DNA of 64,000 nt. Origin: Schmidtea polychroa (lineage: Eukaryota). Positions within the stretch are counted from its first letter, which is position 1. The number at the start of each line of letters is the position of its first letter. This document shows, piece by piece, positions 45,781 through 64,000 of the stretch. The notes under the pieces were generated by a model. That model did no database searches. It saw only the letters and a program-made list of their open reading frames with translations, and had not been told where the DNA came from. A program made the translations under genes and the position numbers. The stretch covers positions 215,636,001-215,700,000 of the forward strand of contig CM097885.1 in NCBI GenBank assembly GCA_044892525.1. Direction: 5' to 3'.

Positions 45781-47780
45781 CTGAAAACAAATACCACAAA
45801 ATCAATCATAAAATAAAAATTTCATTCTCATACATAGTAAAATCGTGAATTCTGAGTTACATCTGACATGTTACGAGAATATTTCGAAAATTTTCTTTTA
45901 GTTAATTTTTCTGCATCTACAAAAAATTACAATAATTTAAAATTTCTTTAAAAATTTTAAAATATAATTTACAGATTCTGAGAAAAATAAGTTTCCTAGT
46001 ATTACTGAATTATTACCGAAAAATTTTAAATATCTTTCATGTTTACATTCCAATCAAAAGAAGAAAAATAAGATCATTAACTAATGTTTTTTCAAAAGAA
46101 TTTATATTGGATGCTTCTTTTCAACATCATTGTAACCGTATTGTCCCAAAAACTTTGTCCCAAATGGATGATTGAATGGCACTTTTTTATATTTATATGA
46201 CGAATAATATAAGTTTAAATTATAAGTGACCAAAATATTAGTTATATTCAATAATTTATCATAACATCAATATTTTAAAGTTTTTTTTTGAAATATTACT
46301 AAAAGAAAGAAGTTTTTGTTGAAGGTTGTGAGTCTTTTTTATTCAATATTTTGCATACCTTATTTTATTTGACAAGATTAATACATATCCCATAAAAATA
46401 GAAAAATGATAAGATAAGAATTTATATTGAAATTTGAAACAAACACTTAATGAAACCAAGTAAAAGAGTACCAATAAGACTTAAATCCATTAAATGAATA
46501 TAGCAGTTTGATTTACTTACATATTTCGTTAAGAATTTCAAACGGCATTTTACTCGGTTTACATTTTTGTGATTTTACAGAATAGATGCAATAATTACTT
46601 ACAGTACTGTATATATTTTACAACAAAAAATTAAAATTCGTGGCTTACCGTGGCTTAAATGTAGAAATATATTTTTTAGAGTAGATATTGCAGGATATAA
46701 AACTGCAAAACTTATATCAAGTGTTTATACTTTGACTGTTATAACTGTTAAATTTCCGAAGAAATTAAAAAAATTGAATATAGGACTATTAATATCATAA
46801 TTTGTCTAAAACAATTTATAGACTAACTTATTGGTTAGAAAAAGTCAATATATAAATTCTAATTTACTAATAGACATTTTTACATAATATTTTTCTTATA
46901 AAGGAATTTGTGGAAACCATTCAAAAATTTAATTGAAAATACTTTTATTTAAAGTGCACTGAAAAGGAAATTTATTCTTAAGCACAAAAGCAATGTAACA
47001 CGCCTACGTGGTTTACATCACATCCAAACATACAAGATAAAATAGTAACTTTTAATATACCTATATTAATTTCTACATATTTTCCATTGAAATTTCAATA
47101 GTGTAAGAAAATTGTGTTTTACTTGATAATATAAAAAACTTAAATAGAAAATTAAAAATATAGTTATAATATTAATCCAAATGAGATAAGCAAACTAAAT
47201 TAAATAGTGGGAAATCGGAAAGAGTTTAGTAAGGATATTTAAATAATATAATTCGTCGGATTAAAGGCTAGCAGATTTATAAATAAATTAATTAACAAAT
47301 AAATAATTGATCCCTTAATTTTTGAAATTATGAATATATATTTTGAGTAAAATGTGTGAATCTTCCTTTATAAATGAAATATTATTTATTATGCAAGAGT
47401 ATTTGTTTATAGTATTTTATAAAACAAAATAAATGAATTTTTTATTAACCTATAACAAGAAATATTAATTTTGTTGATAAAAAACTAATACCACACATAT
47501 TTATGTACCTGTTTTTAATTGATTTGAAATGAAAAGACAAAATCCCGGGGTTGAAAATTTTCGGGATTTTTTGCAAACCCTAATCAATAGTGAGACGGTT
47601 TAAATTTAAAAATAACGACTATCAAACTTTTATAACCTGAACATACAATTGGAATAACAAAGCTATTATAAGTTTATCAGTCAAATCTTTTATTTTGAAC
47701 ATTGATCTTCATTTTTTTTAATGACTAGATCATATCTTTCTAAACATGTTATTTATATTAGTAGGTACAAGTGCGCTGCA

Positions 47781-48077
47781 TGACTCATCGTTGAACAAAG
47801 ACATATGACTCATCGATGACTCATAACAAAGAACATGACTCATACCCCACCCCGGTGAGTCATAAATGACGTCATCAATGACTCATCATACATATGACTC
47901 ATCCTGGTGACTCATCGCGCATGACTCACCCGGGTGACTCATCGCGCATGACTCATCCGGGTGACTCGTCACACATGACTCGTCCTAATGAGTCATCGCG
48001 CATGACTCATCCGGGTGACTCGTCACACATGACTCGTCCTAATGAGTCATCGCGCATGACTCATTAAGGGTGACTCA
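47781..48077. promoter_or_regulatory. Array of about 16 AP-1 consensus sites TGA(C/G)TCA, plus one CRE (TGACGTCA) and four TGACTCG variants
   Basis: Motifs counted directly; partly organised as 54-bp tandem units. Regulatory function is inferred. Confidence 0.65.
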
Positions 48078-48583
48078 TTTCAAATTTAAATTTTAAATTC
48101 AAATTTTAAAAGGGTCAAATGATGTCAAACTTCATGGGTATCATTCGAAAGGTCTTGAAGAGCTCTATCTAATGGTCATACCCTTGAAGGTTTAAGATGT
48201 ATCCTTAACTTTCAAAAGGTCGAACACCTTCAACATTTTAAAAACTATATAATATAGGTATCATTCTAAAGGTAATTCAATATGTTGTTCAATAGTCTAA
48301 ACTACCGCAACGTAATAATATTGTTAACAAATTGAAAGTAATATTAACAAAGACAATGCAGTTTTAATGCAATATTAACAAAGACCCTTCAATCCATGTG
48401 CATAATCAAACAATTACTACTACTACTACTACTGCTCNNNNNNNNNNNNNNNNNNNNNNNNNNNNNNNNNNNNNNNNNNNNNNNNNNNNNNNNNNNNNNN
48501 NNNNNNNNNNNNNNNNNNNNNNNNNNNNNNNNNNNNNNNNNNNNNNNNNNNNNNNNNNNNNNNNNNNNNNNNNNNNNNATTTA

Positions 48584-49090: not shown

Positions 49091-49211
49091 GTTGTATCAA
49101 ATCAAAACTCATATATATTTTACATTTATAGTCTATTAACCAATCAGAATCATATTGCACACACTTCTGTAGTAGTATAAATAAAACATCATATTTTAAA
49201 TTACTGTAGAA

Positions 49212-49738
49212 ATGTCGCAACCTAATTTTATCGAAAACTTGTTAAATGAGGTCGTCAATACAGGCATTACGGAAAGCCTCAGTTACCTAATTAATCGTAC
49301 TGAAGAAATCATCAAGGGGAATCATATTGATTACCAAAACATGCTGGATATGGAGTGTCTGGAGACGAAGAAGTTCTACTTCAATAGAATATTCAATTGT
49401 CTATTCGATGACGAAATGAAGTGGACCCGAATAATTGTAGGGTTCACTTATATGAAGATTATAATTGAAAAAAGTTCATGGGACTCACAACACTATTATC
49501 AATGGTCTCAAGAAGTAATACTTTTATAATCTATATTTTAATAATATTGATTTTTTAGATAATCAAATCTAAATTTACTCCATGGATAGAAGCCAATGGC
49601 GGATGGGGTACATTGAAAAAACTCGCCCGAAATGCTAAGGAAATCGATCAGTATAAAAGAAGATTTAAAAACTTTATTAAATTTTCAACAGGTGTCGCTA
49701 TTTTCTATGTAATTTCTAGATTTTTAAATAAAAATTGA
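49212..49738 (+). CDS. Bcl-2-family protein, 160 aa, two exons (49212-49514, 49559-49738)
   Basis: BH1-like FDDEMKWTRIIVGF in exon 1. A 44-nt phase-0 GTAATA...TTTTAG intron leads in frame to BH2 PWIEANGGWG and a C-terminal tail anchor FSTGVAIFYVISRFLNKN. Confidence 0.85.
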
Positions 49739-51659: not shown

Positions 51660-52097
51660 TTAGAAATCGACCAATAAAAATATCTCATTCCGAACATTGT
51701 TAACAAATTCCATATACTCCAAATTTCTCACCCCAAGCATGACAACCTTTCCACTAGCAAACACATTGACACATATAGGGTTATATTTTAATAGTCTTAG
51801 TGCCGGAAACAATTCCGGTTCAAACATACAATCACATTTTCTCGACATGTTATATAGATTGATACTATGTCCCATATCCATAGTGACGGTAATTGATTGG
51901 ATTTTTATATTATTGATTCGATATTGTAGTTTATTAATATCCAAGGGTTCCTTACATCCCATGATTCTGCATTTGCCAGTCTTGAAAAATATTATTGGAT
52001 ATTTCCCGCTTCTATCGACAATTTGCTGTGGTTTTCCTGATGGAAACCTCATTTTCGAAACATCTAAATCTCCTCGATAATTTATATTTGCTAACAT
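51660..52097 (-). CDS. Compact TATA-box-binding-protein-like protein, 145 aa
   Basis: Two TBP-like repeats: IIFFKTGKCRIMGCK, and IKIQSITVTMDMGHSINL...FEPELFPAL...VNVFASGKVVMLGVR (compare TBP YEPELFPGL and IFVSGKVVLTGAK). Confidence 0.85.
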   Translation of the reverse strand: MLANINYRGDLDVSKMRFPSGKPQQIVDRSGKYPIIFFKTGKCRIMGCKEPLDINKLQYRINNIKIQSITVTMDMGHSINLYNMSRKCDCMFEPELFPALRLLKYNPICVNVFASGKVVMLGVRNLEYMEFVNNVRNEIFLLVDF

Positions 52098-52204
52098 TAT
52101 TAATTCATTTATGAAAATTTCTCTTTATATACAATTTTAGCACGAGTTCATTAAATCACCGAATATAAACAAATATATGTATATATATATTTATAAAATT
52201 TGAA

Positions 52205-52828
52205 ATGGAATTAAGAAATGATGCAGTATACCAAATCGTTGGTCCGAGTGGTAGCGGGAAAACACTGTTTGTTTGTAAATTATTACAATCAAAATTATTT
52301 AAGTCAAAATTTAATAAAATTTATTGGCATAGGGGAGCAGATGATGAAAGCGGAATGACACAAGATCAGTTTTGTAAAATCAAAATGACAATCATAAAAG
52401 GTTTCGATAAAAACTGGTCATCTAGATTACGACAGGGTGATGTGATTATTATTGATGATTTGTATCAAGAAGCAAATAAAGAAAAGGATTTTAATAATTT
52501 ATTTACAAAAATTAGTAGACATAAAGGTGTCACTGTAATTTTTATCACTCAAAATCTTTTTCATCAAGGTGGATCTCATCGAACTCGTAATTTGAATGTT
52601 CAATATTTAGTTATTTTCAAGAACCCTAGAGATGCAACAGTGATTGATTTTCTTGCACGTCAAGCATACCCTAACAATCGAAATTTCTTAATGAATGCAT
52701 TTGCCGATGCAACAAAATCCCCACATGGATATATTTTTCTAGATTTTACACAACAATGTCTTGATGAATTACGAGTAAGAACAGATATATTTAACAAGGA
52801 AGGAGCTATAGTATATAAACAAAGTTAA
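52205..52828 (+). CDS. A32/FtsK-like genome-packaging ATPase, 207 aa
   Basis: Walker A GPSGSGKT, Walker B VIIIDD, SRH arginine motif and FITQN. Confidence 0.93.
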   Translation: MELRNDAVYQIVGPSGSGKTLFVCKLLQSKLFKSKFNKIYWHRGADDESGMTQDQFCKIKMTIIKGFDKNWSSRLRQGDVIIIDDLYQEANKEKDFNNLFTKISRHKGVTVIFITQNLFHQGGSHRTRNLNVQYLVIFKNPRDATVIDFLARQAYPNNRNFLMNAFADATKSPHGYIFLDFTQQCLDELRVRTDIFNKEGAIVYKQS

Positions 52829-53399: not shown

Positions 53400-53787
53400 A
53401 TGGAGAAAATTTGGACGAACCCGGAAGACGAAGCAGGTTTCGGTGGAGTGGCAAAATTAAAGAAAAGAGTTCCGAATTCGAAAAAAGAAACCCAGAAGTG
53501 GTTATCAGATCAACTCGCGTACAGTTTGAACAAACCAATGCAGAAAATATTTCCAACAAGAGCGTATAAAACATATGGAATAAATGATTTATGGCAAATG
53601 GATTTGATGGAGATGATACCTTATTCAAAAATTAACAAAGGGTATAAATATATTTTAACATGTATTGATGTATTCAGCAGGTTTGCACGAGCAATACCAG
53701 TCAAGGCAAAATCTTCAGATGAAATGTCCAAAGCTATTAATATTTTATTTAAAAATGGACATCCTAATAATTTACAAACGGATTTAG

Positions 53788-53830
<43 letters not shown>

Positions 53831-54470
53831 GATTATTATTATTTTAGGTAAAGAATTCTACAACAGTAAAGTTAAGCAAATCCTCGATAAACTGAAAATA
53901 AATCACTATTCGGTACATTCTCAATACAAAGCTGCTCATGTTGAAAGATTTAACAGAACCTTGAGAGAGAGATTAACGAAATTGTTCGTGTATCAAGGTA
54001 ATAAGAAATGGGTATTGGTTTTACCAAAAATTATAACCAGTTATAATAATTCATCACATCGAGGACTTAATGGATTGAGACCAGTTGATGTAAAATCTAA
54101 AATATTTGCTCAACAAGATGTAACAAAAACCAAACCGAAATATAAAGTGGGTGATCATGTTAGAATTAGTAAAATTAGTGCATCACCATTTATTAAAAAT
54201 TTTGATACAAATTGGAGTGATGAAGTCTTTGTAATTTCGAAAATAAATACTAGCCAGAACCCCGTAATGTATGTCATCAAAGATTCTGATAATGACATTG
54301 TACAAGGGAAATTTTATGAGCAAGAATTACAAGTCATTCCTCCCCCAAAAGTATTTAGAATTCAAAAAATATTGAAAACTAAAATGGTAGGTAAGGATAA
54401 ACAATACTATGTCAAATGGCATGGATATAAAAACCCATCATGGATATCGTCTCGAGACCTCGTAAAATGA
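53400..54470 (+). CDS. Retroviral-type DDE integrase with C-terminal chromodomain-like region, 336 aa after removing intron 53788-53847
   Basis: WQMDL, IDVFSRF, LQTDLG|KEFYN and VERFNRTL, plus QYYVKWHGY. The poly-Ile insert in the ORF track is a 60-nt GT-AG intron. Confidence 0.93.
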
Positions 54471-55489
54471 ATTTTTATATTATTTTGCCGAGCAATAGTT
54501 GTCCGAATATACATCCAGAAAACACTGCCAGTAAATTTATGGTCAATTTCCAAAATCCGATTTATTTAAATGGTGAGTGGGAAGTGGCTCTCCTCGACTT
54601 TACATTTGTGTACAATCTCTTTCCAATTTATAGTAAAGCTAAAATTGAATATAAAAAGAAAGAGACGCAAAGAAATATCTCTTTTACCATTGATAATGTA
54701 GAAGATCGAATTGATATATCTAATCCATCAGATTCAATTGTCAAAATGTATATTGATCGTCAATATTTAATAGTTGAATGTAAATATCATCCCTTTACTA
54801 TAAAATTTGATAGTTTAGCAATGGCAAAACGATTGGAATTAACAAGTCAGAGTAATAGAAATCATACTAATATATTCCAAGTACTACGGCCGGGATTTAC
54901 CAAAGTAGCAGCGCGATTTGAAACAATTTCAATGAAAGTTGAGTTTGAAGGTGAAACTGAAAATACATATACGTTTAATGAGAATTTATATATATCTAAA
55001 TTGGAGGAATTACAGTCATATTTAATTCAAAATTGTGGATCAATATTTAAATCATTGGAATTAGTAGACAATACTTTGTTCAAATTCAGTTTGAATACTG
55101 ATATTACTGAAATCACTTTTGATAAAAATCTAATAAAAACATTAGGATTACCAAAAGAAACATATAGTCAAGATGGAAAATTAAATGTAGGTATGAATAA
55201 ACCGAAAATAATTAAACTTCATCATCAAATGTTCATCTATACTAATATTATTGAACCCATAATTGTTGGTGATTCCGCTGTTCCTCTATTGAAATCTATT
55301 TGGGTTGAGAAAAATGAACAAGATGATGTTGTACAAATCAATGTAGAAAATCCCATGTATTTGCATGTTTCAACATCATGTATAAACAATATAGAAATAA
55401 ATATAAGAGATGATTCTGGTCAATTAATCGAATTTGCAAAAGATTCAAAAACTCATTTGACACTACATTTTCGTAAAGTAGATGGCTAA
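54467..55489 (+). CDS. Minor capsid protein (penton-like), about 340 aa
   Basis: N-terminal FYIILPSNS...WEVAL and C-terminal IYTNIIEPIIVGD...PLL...INNIEINIRDDSG...LHFR match the Polinton minor capsid. The start at 54467 overlaps the integrase stop (ATGA). Confidence 0.88.
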   Translation: MNFYIILPSNSCPNIHPENTASKFMVNFQNPIYLNGEWEVALLDFTFVYNLFPIYSKAKIEYKKKETQRNISFTIDNVEDRIDISNPSDSIVKMYIDRQYLIVECKYHPFTIKFDSLAMAKRLELTSQSNRNHTNIFQVLRPGFTKVAARFETISMKVEFEGETENTYTFNENLYISKLEELQSYLIQNCGSIFKSLELVDNTLFKFSLNTDITEITFDKNLIKTLGLPKETYSQDGKLNVGMNKPKIIKLHHQMFIYTNIIEPIIVGDSAVPLLKSIWVEKNEQDDVVQINVENPMYLHVSTSCINNIEINIRDDSGQLIEFAKDSKTHLTLHFRKVDG

Positions 55490-55886
55490 TTCCGATATTA
55501 TTAGTATGTATAGTGGTAGCCAAAGTGGTGGCGAATTACCATATTTTATTGGTAAACAGTACGGAAGTGGGTGGTTGAGAACAATTGGTAGATTTGCGTT
55601 ACCAATTCTGAAACGTATTGGTAATTTCGGCATGAAAACTGCAAAAGATGTAATTATGAATGACAAGAAAATATTACCATCGTTAAAATCAAATGCAATT
55701 GCTGAAATAAGTAAAGTATTACCTGGTATGTTTAATAATAATAAAACTGAACCAGCACCGATACCAGTTGGACCTAAACGTAAATTTGAAAGTGAAATTA
55801 AAACAAGTATGGGAACTAAACGCAAGAGAGGGAGAAGGCATATAAACAAACGAATGAAAGGACACGGAACCATATTTGAAGAATGA
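55482..55886 (+). CDS. pVII-like core protein, 134 aa
   Basis: QSGG and QYGSG glycine motifs, an amphipathic helix and a basic C-terminus; lies immediately before the major capsid gene. Confidence 0.75.
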   Translation: MANSDIISMYSGSQSGGELPYFIGKQYGSGWLRTIGRFALPILKRIGNFGMKTAKDVIMNDKKILPSLKSNAIAEISKVLPGMFNNNKTEPAPIPVGPKRKFESEIKTSMGTKRKRGRRHINKRMKGHGTIFEE

Positions 55887-57109
55887 TTTGCGGTAAATCT
55901 GAATTATGTATATTTGATCGACCATCGCCTCAGGCGGTTATTGAATATGGAGCATTTGAAGATATATTTCCAATGAATTCTATTACCGATAGTAGAAATG
56001 ATGTGGAATTTTACATTAATGGTTCTCAACCAGAATATTTAGATTTGAACGATACTTTGTTGTATGTTCAAATAAAAGTTGTAGATAAAGACAATAAACC
56101 ATTAGCTGCAGATGATGCAACTGAACCTAATAATTTCTTATTTCATACTCTCTTTAAAGATGTTATTCTTGGATTTAATAATATTAAAATTGAGGGTGGA
56201 AACAATACATATGCTCACAAGGCGATTATCGAAACTATTTTAAATTATAATAATGATACTAAAGATACTTGTCTAACTCCAATGGGATATGGTGTATCTG
56301 ATGATCGAAAAAAGTGGATTAAAGGTTCAAAAGCTTTCAACATGTGTTCATCTCTACAATTGGATTTTATGGATCAACCCAAGTATTTACTACCAGGTGT
56401 TAATGTGCATATGAGATTGAAAAGATCTGACTCTGCATTGTCATTATCAACTGGAGTTGCAGGTGCAGCACCTAAATTAATATTACTCGATGCTAAATTA
56501 ATGGTTCGAAGAGTTCGATGTGAATCATCTGTATTAGCTGGACATCAAATTGGATTAAATACAAAACATGCAATTTATCCGATAAAGACAAAGGAAATTG
56601 TATCCTTTGCAATTGCTAAAGGAGCATCATCTTTTTACAAGGAGCAAATATTTGGAGATCGAAGAATGCCTAATTTCATCCTTGTAACGTTTCAAAGTGA
56701 AGCTCAATATAATGGATCTTATGATACATCTTCATCAAAATTCAAACATTTTAGTATAACTTCTCTATCATTATCGAAAAATACTGATTATCGAGAAACT
56801 TATACTCAAGATTTTGATAATGATAATTATTGTACATCATATATGCAAAGTCTTGTCAGAAATTTAGGATATTTAGATAAAAATCTTAATTGTGGTATAA
56901 GTTTGGAAGAATTCAAATCATTCTATCCATTTTTTACATTTGTTCTTGCTCCAGATTTTGATTTAAATCAAAGTCAATTACCTCAAAGTGGAAATTTAAG
57001 ATTGGACATCAAGTTTGGTAAAGCAATTACTGAACCAGTCCATGTAATAATCTATGGAGTTTTTGAAAATGAAATCCAAATTACTACAAATCGAACTGTA
57101 TTAGTATAA
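55883..57109 (+). CDS. Major capsid protein (double jelly-roll, hexon-like), 408 aa
   Basis: CGKSELCIF...VEFYING...YLDLNDTLLYVQIKV N-terminus and ...GNLRLDIKF...VIIYGVFEN C-terminus, characteristic of Polinton/adintovirus MCPs. Confidence 0.9.
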   Translation: MICGKSELCIFDRPSPQAVIEYGAFEDIFPMNSITDSRNDVEFYINGSQPEYLDLNDTLLYVQIKVVDKDNKPLAADDATEPNNFLFHTLFKDVILGFNNIKIEGGNNTYAHKAIIETILNYNNDTKDTCLTPMGYGVSDDRKKWIKGSKAFNMCSSLQLDFMDQPKYLLPGVNVHMRLKRSDSALSLSTGVAGAAPKLILLDAKLMVRRVRCESSVLAGHQIGLNTKHAIYPIKTKEIVSFAIAKGASSFYKEQIFGDRRMPNFILVTFQSEAQYNGSYDTSSSKFKHFSITSLSLSKNTDYRETYTQDFDNDNYCTSYMQSLVRNLGYLDKNLNCGISLEEFKSFYPFFTFVLAPDFDLNQSQLPQSGNLRLDIKFGKAITEPVHVIIYGVFENEIQITTNRTVLV

Positions 57110-57144: not shown

Positions 57145-57529
57145 ATGGAGTAAGATTTTTATTTTATAATTTTATTTATTTATTAGTTCTATTCAGGTGT
57201 TTCGAATTGGTACTCAATTATTGGGAAACCAATTTCTTGGAGTTTATCCACTGAATAAAATCCCTTATTTAGATGTTAATCAAGCAATTATTGTCAATAC
57301 TCATACATCTAGTTTAGGAGGTGAACATTGGATTGCTGTTTACAATAAACCAAACCGAGTATATGCATTCGATCCCTTTGGATATTATTACCCAAATTTA
57401 TTAATTAGTAAATTGCAAACTATTGGTAAACCTATTGTATATAATCGAACTCGATATCAACATCCATTTTCAATTACTTGTGGCCAGCATTGTCTTGCAT
57501 GGTTGTTATCAATGTATAATTTTGTTTAA
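57145..57529 (+). CDS. Adenain-like cysteine (maturation) protease, 115 aa, two exons (57145-57149, 57187-57529)
   Basis: GEHW, FDPFG, YQ and TCGQHC catalytic motifs. The ORF has no ATG unless the 37-nt GTAAGA...TTAG intron is removed, which gives MDSIQVFRIG. Confidence 0.85.
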
Positions 57530-57915
57530 TATATATTATTGTAAAAATGTCGTCTTATTAATGAACAATTTTGATAATTAAATTTATTTTAATTTATTAT
57601 TATTATTTTATAAATATTCTTATTATTATTATTTGCAATTAATGTGCAAGTTATTTACAATGACTAGTCATGTTTTACCTTTTTGAAATAGTCACGTAGT
57701 GTCTTTGTTAAACGACAAAGACATCTCATTATTCATGCACATGGCGAGTAGTTGATATACATACCTACACGGTGAGTGCGTAAATGATACACAGTAGTAT
57801 GTATGTGTGTTGTATATATTCCTCGATTCTGATTGGATCGTGAATAAAGTTTGTAATAAACGTGATATATATTCTATGTTTTTCATTTTTTCGTCACTTT
57901 TAGACAAAACTTACA

Positions 57916-58507
57916 ATGAAGAACATTTCAAAAGATATCAAAAGAATGATACAAAGAAACCGAATTGGTAAATTTTGTTTTTTATAATATGTTAATTTAT
58001 AATATATTTTAGCAGATATGAATATTCGTATATCAGCACCTAATCATCCTAAAATTGAAAGCAACAAGAAAAATGGTAAATATTTAAAATATTAAAATAA
58101 TATGTTATGAAATTATTCAGGAACAACTGTAACAATAAATGAATATGACGCAGCTACTCGAAACGAGATGTTGAATGTTGACATCGATGGTAATATTTAT
58201 ATTTATTAATAATTAATTTAATTAATTAATTTAAAAAACAGATGAAATTTATGAAAATATTCAAAAAGAATTTCAAGAACCGAAAAATGTCGGAGAAAAT
58301 GAAAATATATCAAAAAATAATGAAATTATTGAAAACATTCAAAATGAATTTGAAGAAAATATTTTTGATGAAAATGTATCAAAAAATAATGAAATTATTT
58401 ACGATGAAAGATACAATGGAAAACAAAAATGTAAGATTTGATTTATTTATAAAATATTTATTTAAAGTATTTATTCATAAATTTGCTTTTAAGATTATAA
58501 GACTTGA
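57916..58507 (+). CDS. Multi-exon acidic hypothetical protein, about 128 aa (exons 57916-57967, 58013-58075, 58121-58189, 58242-58430, 58494-58507)
   Basis: Successive phase-1 GT-AG introns of 45, 45, 52 and 63 nt keep one frame open. The last intron is optional, since a stop follows 3 codons later if it is retained. Confidence 0.72.
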
Positions 58508-58649
58508 TTGACAATTATAATAAAAAAAAAATAATAATTATTTTTTTGTTAAAAAATAAATGATTTTACTTTTTATTCAATTTCATTTTTATATTTTTAT
58601 TAAAAATTTTTAATAAAAGTTAGTAATATTATTACTATTATTACTATTT

Positions 58650-58691
<42 letters not shown>

Positions 58692-59167
58692 TTATATTTT
58701 TTTTTGCTTAGTTTTATTTAGGATGATTTTATATTATAACTAATATTATAACTAAAAAGGGATTTTTTATCTAAAATATATTTTATTATTAAATGGTGAA
58801 TATAATATATTGAATTTTAGGAGATCATGAATAAATATGTATGATAATAATATTAGTTTAAATAATAATATTAATAATAATAATAATAATTATCATTATT
58901 ATTATTATTTATATTTTAGCTTAGTTTTTATTTAAGTTGATGTTATACATCCTACAATTAATTGTTTTTGATAATATTTGTTTTAAATTAAATATAGCTT
59001 TTTAAGATATGTAATTATTTATTTAAGATATATATATTTTAGAAATATTTTACGATTAAATATATGATATTAGAAATCGTAAAATATTATAACGAAAAAG
59101 ATATTTTATATCGAAAATATATTTTATTGTTAAATGGTAAATATAATATATTGAATTTTAGGAGAAC

Positions 59168-59186
59168 ATGAATAAATATGATGATG

Positions 59187-59239
<53 letters not shown>

Positions 59240-59494
59240 TTAAATTTTAGCTTAGTTTTTTATTTAGGTCGATTTTATACATCCTACTGTAATAATACTT
59301 TTCATAATAACTGTCATTGTCTTATGGAAAAGTATTATTCGCATAAATATAATGGTATCATCTACCAGATATGTCCTACATGCAAAACATTAGACACAAA
59401 AACATATTTCGAATTTTACAAAAAACATTGCAATCATTTAAGACAATTTACAGGTTCGAAAAAAGATTTATTCATCATATTAGTAGGTAGTTAG
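59168..59494 (+). CDS. Hypothetical Cys/His-rich protein with an (AAT)n insert; last of about 3 tandem decaying copies
   Basis: C-x4-H-x2-CHC, CPTC and CNH pattern. Flanking blocks (GAATTTTAGGAGA.CATGAATAAATATG; CTTAGTTTT) repeat at about 58700-58840. Confidence 0.4.
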
Positions 59495-59589
59495 TGGCTT
59501 ACGGCAACAATTACCCCCCCCGGGGGGGGGTTGTTGCAACTTTTTTTTGTTGCCGTAATTTTTTTGTTGCAACTTTTGATTACGCAATT

Positions 59590-60060
59590 TTTCACACTAT
59601 AGTGAGGGGGTCTCGATGGTCCTGGGATTTTCAATACAAAAAAAATTTTTCTATACAAAAATCCGACTACCACTAAAAAAGCATGGAATTTTCAGACTAT
59701 AGTGAGGGGGTCTCGATGGTCCTGGGATTTTCAATACAAATAAAATTTTTTCTATACAAAAACGATGGTCCTGGGATTTTCAATACAAATAAAATTTTTT
59801 CAATACAAAAAGGCGGTCTCACTAAAAAAGCATGGAATTTTCAGACTATAGTGAGGGGGTCTCGATGGTCCTGGGATTTTCAATACAAAAATATTTTTTC
59901 AATACAAAAAGGCGGTCTTCAATAAAAAAGCATGGTAATTTAAGGTCTCAGGATATTTTCAATACAAATAGGCGGTCTACACTAAAAAAGCCAAGGATTT
60001 TTCAGACTATAGTGAGGTGAGTCTCCTTGGACCTGAGAAAAAGGTGGTCTACACTAAAAA
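59590..60060. repeat. Imperfect tandem repeats containing CTATAGTGAGGGGGTCTCGATGGTCCTGGGATTTTCAATACAAA
   Basis: Three full copies plus partial ones, preceded by a GCAACAA-C8/G9-TTGTTGC hairpin at 59504-59537. Confidence 0.88.
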
Positions 60061-60065
60061 CGTGG

Positions 60066-60540
60066 TAAATTTTTCAATTAAAGTAAATAATGGTCCAAAT
60101 TTTAAAATTAAAGTAAATTATGGTTCTAAAAATTAAATTAAAGTAAATTATGGTCCTAAAAATTAAATTAAAGTAAATTAAGGTCCTAAAAATTAAATTA
60201 CAGTAAATAATGGTTCTAAAAAATTAAATTACAGTAAATAATGGTTCTAAAAAATTAAATTACAGTAAATTATGGTCCAAATTTTTCTATTACAGTTAAT
60301 TATGGTCCTAAAAAATTAAATTAAAGTAAATTATGGCTCAAATTTTTCAATTACAGTAAATAATGGTCCTAAAAAATTAAATTACAGTAAATTATGGTCT
60401 AAATTTTTAAATTAAAGTAAATTATGGTCCTAAAAATTAAATTAAAGTAAATTATGGTCCTAAAAAATTAAATTACAGTAAATTATGGCTCAAATTTTTC
60501 AATTAAAGTAAATAATGGTCTAAATTTAAAATTAAGTAAT
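60066..60540. repeat. About 30-bp AT-rich minisatellite (AAATTAAAGTAAATTATGGTCCTAAA), about 15 copies
   Basis: Read directly. Confidence 0.9.
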
Positions 60541-60802
60541 CAATGGTAAAAAATTTTAAATAAGTAAATTAAAGTATTAATTTTTAAATTAAGTAATCAA
60601 TGGTAAAAAATTTTAAATAAGTAAATTAAAGTAATGTAATAAGTAAATTAAAGTAAGATTTTTAAATTTATTAACAAAAAGTTGAAGGTGTTTGAGAATT
60701 GAAATTTTTTAATGGAAATTTTTATGAAATATTTTTTAAGTAATTTTTAATGGAAATTTTTATGAAATAATTTTTCAAAGTCAAATGAAAATTTTAACGA
60801 AA

Positions 60803-60833
<31 letters not shown>

Positions 60834-60930
60834 AATAAAAATAATATATCAACCAAATACATAAAAATGAACTAGACACATAAAACACAAACAATTAACA
60901 AATGTAAAGATATAAAATTTATTCAATAAA

Positions 60931-63900
60931 TTAGTCCTCATCGGACAAAATAACGTCATCGATATCGATGTCATCTTCTTCATTAAATTCTTCCTCATCT
61001 TCTCCATCATTTTCTCCATCATTTTCTGAAACATCTTCTCCATCATTTTCTGAAACATTTTCTGCGACAATTTCTCCAACATTTTCTCCAATATTTAATT
61101 CACTTAATCTTACATGCCCATATGCAAGACTAGCGTTTTTCCCCACCCAAACCCTTTTGTCATCTTTGTTTGTTAGTGCTATTTTTGTGTTTTTAATTGT
61201 AAAAATTTGATGATTTTTGCTTGTTATTTTAGTCTGAGGAACCGAAAAAATCTGGTTAGTGTTATAACAATCCAGGTATGACTGATGTTTTATGTCACTA
61301 CCTTTCAATGTTACACCTTTAGCCTTTTTTGTTTCCTCATCACCCAACAAGCTATAACATTTAGGTCTAAGAAAAACCCACTCCTTATATTTAAGACCTT
61401 TATTCTCGTCTTTGAACTTTCCAATGACTGAATCAAGGTTCTTACTATATAAGGAATGACAACTATTGTAATTGGAAGTATCTAATAAATTATCTCGAAT
61501 CATTGCAGGTAAAAGAACCTCAAGTTTGCAGTTAATGACTTCGAGGAAAAAAGAATCTGTATCACCTGCAACGATATTAATTTTACAATTAAACTCATTG
61601 CGAAATGATTCCAGATCCTTATATTGCAATTCATACATTCTAAGTTTAGATAGATCAAGTACAGATTGACCAATGTAACTCGGTCTATCTAAACATATAG
61701 AATCTGAATTCAATAGTGTTGCAATTAAATTATCAGCTATTTTAATAGATTTTTTAAAAGTCGGTTTTGACGAATATTTAACTAATTTACCTGCAGTTGT
61801 ACAAAGACGAAGATTCATTCTTCTCTTTAAATTTTCAACTGTTTTGCCGTATAAACTGTTATTTAGCAATTTATAATAATTTTTATCTAAGTTATTTACG
61901 CTTTTTGATCTTAATTCGGTATTTGTATCTATATATTTTTTAAAAATTGGTGATTGCTTAAATCTTACACCTCTATTTACACGTGTTACTTTAACACCAA
62001 GTTCTAAATATAATTTTAATAATCTCCAATGAATAACATAATTAGATTTTGGAAGATGAGTTAATAATAATTTTTCAACCTTAGACCCAGCAGGTTTCAT
62101 TTTTTCAGCAGCTACAGGGAAATCATCCAACTTATCATGAAGCTCAGAAGGAATTACAAGATCAACTTCAAGTGTGTATCCATAAGACAAAGATTCAAGA
62201 TTTAAATTCCTACATTCATCCATTATTTTATCAAATCCATTAAGAACCCAACAAAATTCTCCACAAGGTAATGATTGACTTAAAGCCCACCCATAAAGAT
62301 TATTAATATCTATATAAAGTAACTCGGTGTTCTCGTCGGTATTTACGTAATGCTTATTCACAAAAGTAAGACCGCCTCTTATTCCACCCTCATAAAAGCT
62401 AAACATTTCGTTTTCAGTTATGAGTTCAATTGGTTCATTTAAAGACATTAATGCAGAAGACCACGACATGCCTGGAATTCCGAAATAATTCAAAGGCTCT
62501 AATCTATTGTGAGCAATTGATTTCAACCTAAACTGATGAAAGAAATCAGCCAAAAGAAAACAATCAAGTTTTAGGTAGATCATCATATAATCTAATAAAG
62601 TTCTGCAATTAGATTCTACCCAAATCTCCTGAGCTTTTTCATACTCAAGCTCAGTGACACCCTCCCAGATTGGTGGTAATTCATACGTAGTTTGTAGAAC
62701 ATCTAAAGAAGTGGCGAAATTATAAGGGAAGATTCCTTTTTCACATACTATGGTGCCAGAAAAAGCAGAATTAGTAAAAGGCAAAGAATTCAAAGTTTTG
62801 ACTGCTTTAGCCAAAGAATCATTGACAAATTGATATGAATCAATGAATCTTAGGCTAATTTTGCCTAAATGAGCAATCAAAGATATAAATTTTTCCGTAG
62901 TTATTGGGATGCACCCTAAATTCCAATTTTTAAATTTATTTAATCCATATTTAAGTATATGATGCATATCGTATCCCTTCAAGTTGTGAAATACGATGGG
63001 CAAAATTTTATTTATTTTTCTATTTACGTTACATGTGCTACAAGCTGCACCCAAGTATTTGCCCGTAAAATGATCGTGATCTCTAACAGGATCCACGATA
63101 GATTTCAAACAAAGATAACAAACCGTTGAATTAATGAATTGTTGTTGCTCATTTTTAGTTAATTTAATCATTGGTTTCCTACCCATTTTATAATAAAAAG
63201 GAAGAACCTTATTTAATGCTATATCCTCTATAGCACTTAAAAAACTCTCGACGCAATCTAAACCTATGAACTGCTGATAAGATTTAGATCCGTCAAAGTT
63301 ATTTACTAGTAAAAGACCAGCAGATATTGGCATGTGTCGCTGAAAATGATCATTATCACAAGGTAAAATAGCCTCAAAATCGGCATAAACTACGAAAGGA
63401 GGAGTTACTGTTTTCGACCAGTCAGTAAACTGTAAGAATTTATTTTGAGGGAAAGTATAAAGAGTAGTTCCTAATTGCTTGCGTTTGCATAATATTTCAT
63501 GTTTTTCTAGTGCGTTTCTATTGTTAAAACCATTCAAACAACGATGACACCATATTGATCGTATGCGTGTAGGACAACTAGTGTTTATGCTGCAATTCAG
63601 TAACCTATTTAAATTGCTTATAGCAATGTAATGGAAATTGTTCCCTTTATTTAATAAAAGTAAATTAATTACTGTTCCATTTAAAACTTTTGAACGATGT
63701 ATAATGTCTAAATGGGGGTGTTTTAAAACGTAATTATCTATTAATTGTTTGTTATGGTCATAAGTAAAAACATTAATTATTAAACCAGGATTTTTGGCCT
63801 CGAATTTTCTAATATCTTTTAATTTCATTGGTAAGTCTAATGGATTATATATTAACTCAGATAAATTATAACTGGATGTTCTATTTCTATATTGGCTAAT

Positions 63901-64000
63901 AACCTCATCATATTTTAAAATAGCTAAAATGCTATATAAAAAACATGAATCGTCGGTGTTTTTTACATTAATTAAACAATATTTATTTTTTAGACAAGTA
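60931..64000 (-). CDS. Protein-primed family B DNA polymerase (5' end outside the window, more than 1020 aa)
   Basis: Exo I YADFE, Exo II HNLKGYD, Exo III YLKLD, Pol A DINNLY, Pol B KLLNNSLYGK and Pol C GDTDS. The frame is open from 63999 to the stop at 60931, so the ORF-track start at 63828 is internal. Confidence 0.96.
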   Translation of the reverse strand, partial: TCLKNKYCLINVKNTDDSCFLYSILAILKYDEVISQYRNRTSSYNLSELIYNPLDLPMKLKDIRKFEAKNPGLIINVFTYDHNKQLIDNYVLKHPHLDIIHRSKVLNGTVINLLLLNKGNNFHYIAISNLNRLLNCSINTSCPTRIRSIWCHRCLNGFNNRNALEKHEILCKRKQLGTTLYTFPQNKFLQFTDWSKTVTPPFVVYADFEAILPCDNDHFQRHMPISAGLLLVNNFDGSKSYQQFIGLDCVESFLSAIEDIALNKVLPFYYKMGRKPMIKLTKNEQQQFINSTVCYLCLKSIVDPVRDHDHFTGKYLGAACSTCNVNRKINKILPIVFHNLKGYDMHHILKYGLNKFKNWNLGCIPITTEKFISLIAHLGKISLRFIDSYQFVNDSLAKAVKTLNSLPFTNSAFSGTIVCEKGIFPYNFATSLDVLQTTYELPPIWEGVTELEYEKAQEIWVESNCRTLLDYMMIYLKLDCFLLADFFHQFRLKSIAHNRLEPLNYFGIPGMSWSSALMSLNEPIELITENEMFSFYEGGIRGGLTFVNKHYVNTDENTELLYIDINNLYGWALSQSLPCGEFCWVLNGFDKIMDECRNLNLESLSYGYTLEVDLVIPSELHDKLDDFPVAAEKMKPAGSKVEKLLLTHLPKSNYVIHWRLLKLYLELGVKVTRVNRGVRFKQSPIFKKYIDTNTELRSKSVNNLDKNYYKLLNNSLYGKTVENLKRRMNLRLCTTAGKLVKYSSKPTFKKSIKIADNLIATLLNSDSICLDRPSYIGQSVLDLSKLRMYELQYKDLESFRNEFNCKINIVAGDTDSFFLEVINCKLEVLLPAMIRDNLLDTSNYNSCHSLYSKNLDSVIGKFKDENKGLKYKEWVFLRPKCYSLLGDEETKKAKGVTLKGSDIKHQSYLDCYNTNQIFSVPQTKITSKNHQIFTIKNTKIALTNKDDKRVWVGKNASLAYGHVRLSELNIGENVGEIVAENVSENDGEDVSENDGENDGEDEEEFNEEDDIDIDDVILSDED

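Follow-up and report, generated by a model that had tools for sequence, protein, structure and literature searches.

How does a transposable element keep an integrase whose catalytic core is broken by a run of almost pure ATT repeat? We analysed a 64,000-nucleotide stretch of Schmidtea polychroa DNA (hereafter the window), from an AT-rich genome of 781 Mb, and followed the interrupted integrase site through copies across that genome.

An ATT-repeat insert in the integrase catalytic core

Read directly from the sequence, the integrase insert (53788-53847) is 60 nt long, starts with GT and ends in TTTTAG. The order at the site is GAT TTA G/GT (ATT)13 ATG (ATT)4 TTA G/GT AAA GAA (slashes mark the junctions), and the 8-nt sequence TTTAGGTA is found at both junctions (53783-53790 and 53843-53850). 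TRF called a TAT repeat of 18.3 units (96%) in the insert, and ATT/AAT arrays are frequent within the window. The insert lies two codons past the second catalytic Asp, within the Gly codon of QTDLG; aligned through the intron-less homologue P0001, the QTD Asp falls on LQTDNG, the motif of the second catalytic Asp in retroviral integrase cores. Both flanks are open. Exon 1 (53400-53787, forward strand, 388 nt, from ATG to QTDL G) holds the first two acidic catalytic motifs (PF00665, E 6e-08), and exon 2 (53848-54470, forward strand, 623 nt) runs from KEFYN through VERFN and a chromodomain (PF00385, below the Pfam cut-off) to the stop.

Reading through the insert leaves the frame open and lengthens the protein by 20 residues, of which 17 are Ile. 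The sequence thus agrees with an earlier, sequence-only reading of this locus, which described a 60-nt, near-pure (ATT)n insert two codons after a catalytic Asp, in frame, stop-free and adding about 20 mostly Ile residues if retained. The motif Q-T/S-D-x-G-K/R-E-F-Y is unbroken in 110 of 120 homologues, a set biased toward unbroken ORFs, the other 10 being missed by the search pattern. At the DNA level, all seven metagenome loci spanning the site are uninterrupted (7 of 12 loci; the other five did not cover the site or were not read).

The integrase belongs to a Maverick/Polinton

The element that bears this integrase is a Maverick/Polinton with terminal inverted repeats (TIRs) and a 6-bp target-site duplication, TATATT, on either side. 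Its left TIR (47760-48437) starts with AGTAG and matches locus L114 in inverted orientation at 93-97%; the right TIR lies past the window end, at about G000:C1:215718262-215718858. On the forward strand, an A32-like packaging ATPase (52205-52828; PF04665, E 1e-06, above cut-off) precedes the integrase, which is followed by an ORF for a probable minor capsid protein (54467-55489; assigned by position only, with no Pfam match), a probable double-jelly-roll major capsid protein (55883-57109) and an adenain-type C5 cysteine protease (57145-57529, ATG at 57145; PF00770, E 7e-08, above cut-off) broken by a likely 37-nt intron. The major capsid assignment is a lead: a Pfam search of the ORF gave no match, and its feature score of 0.98 is to a cluster in which 30% of members carry PF21738, with a recognition value under the tool's threshold.

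The window element's polymerase ORF has 1321 open codons beyond a nested element and carries the motifs DINNLYG and KLLNNSLYGK (family-B motifs A and B); the YxDTDS pattern was unmatched, and the only Pfam match was a weak one to endonuclease VII. That weak match is common to the polymerases of the window element and the nested element, and tandem NVDCVPNQLNT-type peptide repeats lie near the start of the window element's polymerase ORF (L113:4111-4420). The nested element, seen at 59477-64000 together with stretches L031 and L113, is a complete Maverick of about 16.6 kb with TIRs and a CATATT duplication. It belongs to a family that we call B42, sits within the 5' portion of the polymerase ORF of the window element and ends within the window (59483-64000, reverse strand), where the minus-strand polymerase ORF belongs to it. 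Because this second Maverick interrupts its polymerase ORF, the window copy has probably lost its autonomy. A search of viral contigs found no relative.

Further features of the window are a TBP-like gene (51660-52121, reverse strand; PF00352, E 1.5e-15), a Bcl-2-like ORF (49200-49529, forward strand; PF00452, E 2e-04, below cut-off) and, at 1-2152, a perfect 747-nt inverted repeat with a 658-nt spacer.

Presence of the insert across related copies

Comparison of related copies for presence and length answered the worry that others might lack the insert: all 30 of the best genome copies carry one at the same base, 30-168 nt long. Its length is a multiple of three (3n) in 20 of these closest copies and 3n+2, with stops, in 10. 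A genome-wide pattern search of the integrase site returned 121 matches with a gap of 0-27 nt, 859 with 28-58 nt and 564 with 59-89 nt, and reversed-pattern controls returned 0, 1 and 0; 1,423 matches therefore carry an insert of 28-89 nt. Chance and misassembly are thereby rejected, and the insert is a trait of the family.

Many of these inserts are not ATT repeats. Hand counts among the matches listed gave 45 of 100 ordinary AT-rich introns in the 28-58 nt class and about 92 of 100 inserts of 3n length in the 59-89 nt class. Three families hold non-ATT introns, namely B42 (42 nt, with an in-frame stop), C43 (43 nt) and D40 (40 nt). The integrase site is present in 130 fetched loci, a non-random set made up of best BLAST matches, the first 30 pattern matches and 55 stretches picked for odd length or family; 95 carry an insert (76 in the ATT clade, 11 B42, 5 D40 and 3 C43). 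Across the copy series, insert lengths span 18 to 168 nt.

The insert is likely a spliced intron

Among the 95 insert-bearing fetched loci, GT starts the insert in all 95 and AG ends it in 91 while the body varies; in pattern-derived loci the first G was imposed by the search pattern, the T and the AG being free. Read-through is blocked, by a stop or by frame, in every B42 (11), C43 (3) and D40 (5) intron. The flanking exon frames are nonetheless colinear with those of intron-less homologues and under purifying selection: in single pairs, exon dN/dS is 0.12 between B42 and C43 (dS 0.93), 0.16 and 0.105 between D40 and the ATT clade (dS 0.68 and 0.79) and 0.10-0.31 inside the ATT clade. Because read-through is blocked in these sister families while their exons are under purifying selection, splicing is likely. 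The insert, comprising a GT, an almost pure (ATT)n body and an AG on the forward strand, is thus very likely the spliceosomal intron, in phase 1, that the sequence-only reading proposed for the catalytic core; copy comparison and the junctions, with GT and AG kept across copies as in a U2-type intron, point the same way.

Splicing length may have a lower limit. Both flanks are open in 1 of 11 loci with an insert under 40 nt (that one has a late stop) versus 49 of 84 at 40 nt or more, which fits a size floor and fits the decay of old copies too. To our knowledge, the pure ATT body contains no consensus branch point. In aggregate, the comparisons make it likely that the family-wide Maverick integrase insert is a constitutively spliced intron whose microsatellite body arose secondarily from an older AT-rich intron.

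Other likely introns in the element

The protease carries the second likely intron, 37 nt long (3n+1), directly after ATG GA (57150-57186, forward strand), at a position common to every family for which a protease was found. All 12 proteases found (L031, L112, L135, L136, L139, L140, L142-L145, L147 and L148) have a GTAAG...TAG insert here, a count that leaves out L099, L053 and D40, and the insert varies in length and frame; no protease was found in 5 of the 16 longer stretches (L137, L138, L141, L146 and L149). Because the protease intron also occurs in families whose integrase is intron-less, introns in these elements appear to be older than the integrase intron.

By eye, a small gene after the protease (57850-58500) apparently contains three more short GT-AG introns, at about 57968-58012, 58078-58121 and 58191-58241. 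Upstream of the polymerase ORF, the intron-like sequence at 58560-59280 contains duplicated units that include (AAT)n arrays. Microsatellite growth thus extends beyond the integrase intron.

One gain or two

The intron-bearing families form two clades, D40 with the ATT families and B42 with C43, each beside intron-less families. D40 is the sister group of the ATT clade, the intron-less L099 comes next, and outside relatives lack the integrase intron. The trees were built from loci with open flanks (29 genome loci in the first, 14 in later ones) plus outside homologues, and the exon-1 tree (68 rows) was read as a quick tree. On both exon trees the fewest intron state changes is two.

Whether these are two gains or one gain followed by losses is about evenly balanced. 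A single gain in the families' common ancestor, with later loss in L099, L053 and the L036 group, is compatible with splicing and comes just short of an even chance in our judgement. The two clades share the same base, the same phase and a near-equal length (40-43 nt), and exon 1 does not reject a single intron-bearing clade (p-AU 0.125). Exon 2 does reject it (p-AU 0.019 under LG+G4 and 0.029 under a mixture model), in an AU test chosen after the first tree had been seen. The exon-1 and exon-2 trees place L053 differently, so recombination between families may have blurred the history, to the benefit of a single gain, and the protease intron shows that these elements can keep an intron for long. 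A single gain would nevertheless require a minimum of two precise intron removals, and a DNA element of this kind does no reverse transcription itself.

Compared with shuffled sequences, the intron bodies of D40, ATT, B42 and C43 show no excess similarity to one another (p 0.31-0.99), and it is therefore parsimony that argues for descent of the ATT intron from a D40-like one. On that footing, the ATT body probably replaced an older, ordinary AT-rich intron body in the window lineage. We hold only tentatively, at rather less than an even chance, the combined reading that the intron was gained twice at the same integrase codon and that one lineage now runs on a minimal GT-(ATT)n-TTAG intron spliced without a recognisable branch point.

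Age of the intron, the junction repeat and retention

The sequence-only reading saw in this locus a snapshot of intron birth: a recent tandem duplication of a TTAGGTA proto-splice site followed by ATT expansion, with in-frame retention acting as a regulated off-switch for integration. We judge this account unlikely. The ATT-type intron is common to copies whose divergence reaches dS 0.36, and at the same base D40, the sister family (dS 0.68-0.79), carries a 40-nt intron that is not a repeat; pure ATT lies on both deep branches of the ATT clade, with an interrupted 42-nt form nested inside. By these distances the integrase intron would be older than newborn, with an age of at least dS 0.36, and the insert does not show intron birth in progress. 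The ATT body has no similarity to the D40 intron and may for that reason represent an independent gain on the ATT stem, a point in favour of birth by duplication.

The duplicated motif is indeed at both junctions, and the 8-nt repeat recurs in 62 of 76 ATT-clade loci and in all 11 B42 loci; as a signature of duplication it is weak, being absent from 14 of the 76 ATT-clade loci and from all D40 (0 of 5) and C43 (0 of 3) loci. The repeat is accounted for by the TTA-Gly-Lys codons and the GTA and TTTAG splice ends by themselves. The site reads TTG G/GT in L099, which is intron-less, in D40 and in nine ATT-type loci, all of which consequently lack the 8-nt repeat; with TTG G/GT in the nearest outgroups, there was no AG there to duplicate. 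Likeness to the flanks also ends at the junction, as the window intron matches its flanks beyond it at 4 of 15 positions per side. The best candidate for a duplication-born intron is B42, with an 11-nt repeat and 7 of 15 further matches per side. That a functional intron can arise when a splice-like site is duplicated is described in the available part of one report (PMC3265369).

The proposed retention switch fares no better. Most ATT-type inserts are 3n long, as the counts above attest, which would suit a switch. Both flanks are open in 9 of the 10 out-of-frame close copies, four of which have identical exon-2 DNA at dispersed places in the genome; such variants have spread with intact flanks, which led us to reject selection for in-frame retention. 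The introns of the three other families block read-through altogether. ATT, TTA and TAT are all sense codons. None of the sense frames of an ATT repeat thus contains a stop, and its slippage goes in steps of three, so an in-frame, stop-free insert follows mechanically from the triplet repeat.

Dead integrases and chance insertion as unlikely alternatives

It is highly unlikely that the insert is never spliced, the integrase genes being dead and the families moved in trans by intron-less Mavericks. Such Mavericks do share the genome (93 of 100 matches listed with a 0-27 nt gap are intron-less). Putative RNA runs (four each over L008:1300-2420 and L112:5850-9680, none on record as RNA) showed no GT-AG joint among those listed, the junction zone having been skipped as repeat and the listing for L112:5850-9680 covering only some joints. 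Against dead integrases stand the purifying selection that both exons show when families with read-through-blocking inserts are compared, the conservation of GT and AG around unrelated bodies and the more than tenfold excess of insert-bearing over intron-less matches.

One X2 contig has 38 unplaced letters beyond exon 1, for which k-mer logic makes an unspliced molecule the best fit; its source may be DNA or pre-mRNA. X3 contigs end in poly-A or poly-T within the minor-capsid-like and integrase genes (L112:8626-8733 and L008:2017). These ends may hint at element transcripts, with early polyadenylation or internal priming as possible causes.

A private accident is scarcely credible, whether through misassembly or through insertion of a truncated retroposon that left its (TAA)n tail and duplicated 8 bp of target. 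It would suit the 8-nt direct repeat that brackets the ATT array and the many ATT/AAT arrays of the window. Both versions are rejected by the same-base insert in all 30 close copies and hundreds more and by the sister families, whose introns at that base are not repeats. Individual ATT repeat lengths may still include assembly noise.

A proposed course of events and its consequences

We propose the following course for the likely spliced intron. The starting point would be the sequence TTGG or TTAG followed by GTAAAG, which is seen unbroken in outside relatives and in several families of this genome and already resembles a splice junction. At this site an intron of 40-43 nt would have been gained, once or twice, in the Mavericks of this host. 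In the window clade its body would then have become (ATT)n, which now grows and shrinks in threes, with nothing kept but the GT, the T-rich stretch ending in AG and a minimum length of about 40 nt. Host spliceosomes would excise the intron from the integrase mRNA, as they would the protease intron, and integrase transcripts that retain it would simply be non-functional.

If introns in integrase and protease are indeed family-wide, the spread of these Mavericks would need nuclear transcription and host splicing, and ORF-based surveys would misclassify such intact elements as broken. With the copy series of 18 to 168 nt, the minimum size of an intron and its branch-point needs can be tested directly, and parallel gain at a splice-like site can be tested on the two intron-bearing clades. 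Should both two gains and a minimal ATT intron prove true, more than 1,400 copies would form a natural series for intron gain, length limits and microsatellite takeover, in an element that depends on the host spliceosome for integration and for particle maturation.

Comparison with known systems

The window element resembles animal Mavericks/Polintons (polintoviruses, adintoviruses) in its TIRs, 6-bp duplication, chromodomain integrase, A32-like ATPase, C5 protease, probable jelly-roll capsids and polymerase ORF with family-B motifs A and B. Intact vertebrate Mavericks have intronless ORFs, according to the available part of a study that states this in agreement with Kapitonov and Jurka 2006 (PMC8097293); the families described here differ in having likely spliceosomal introns in integrase and protease throughout. 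Intronless core genes are a described trait of vertebrate Mavericks, not a defining one. In the available parts of their sources, no spliceosomal intron in core genes is reported for a nematode Polinton (PMC10748475), an adintovirus (PMC8502044), cryptophyte elements, which have group I introns (PMC12220804), or Tetraselmis (10.1101/2022.05.02.489867). Our literature search found no intron-bearing animal Maverick, and Repbase or subscription papers may already annotate such introns.

Tandem duplication of a splice-like site is one known route to an intron, in the available part of the report cited above (PMC3265369). The empty integrase site fits that route in resembling a splice junction. Introns born in this way should resemble their flanking exons, whereas the window intron matches them over only 8 nt. 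In Daphnia pulex, the available text describes parallel intron gains as common, in host alleles with ages from tens to hundreds of thousands of years (PMC4202315). As here, related lineages have AT-rich introns of unrelated sequence at a single position, some junctions carrying short direct repeats, and the Daphnia criteria, as given there, would score the D40/ATT and B42/C43 introns as parallel gains. The difference is that ours are virus-like element families at dS 0.7-1.5, by which point similarity would have eroded anyway.

A parallel for spliceosomal introns within Maverick-like elements comes from maverick-polinton-like proviruses of dinoflagellates, which, in the available part of that report, bear introners that are made by transposons and mostly acquired after integration (PMC11957031). 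The bodies seen here are instead unrelated low-complexity sequences that would not make up an introner family, and the intron is inherited by a replicating family at a fixed site.
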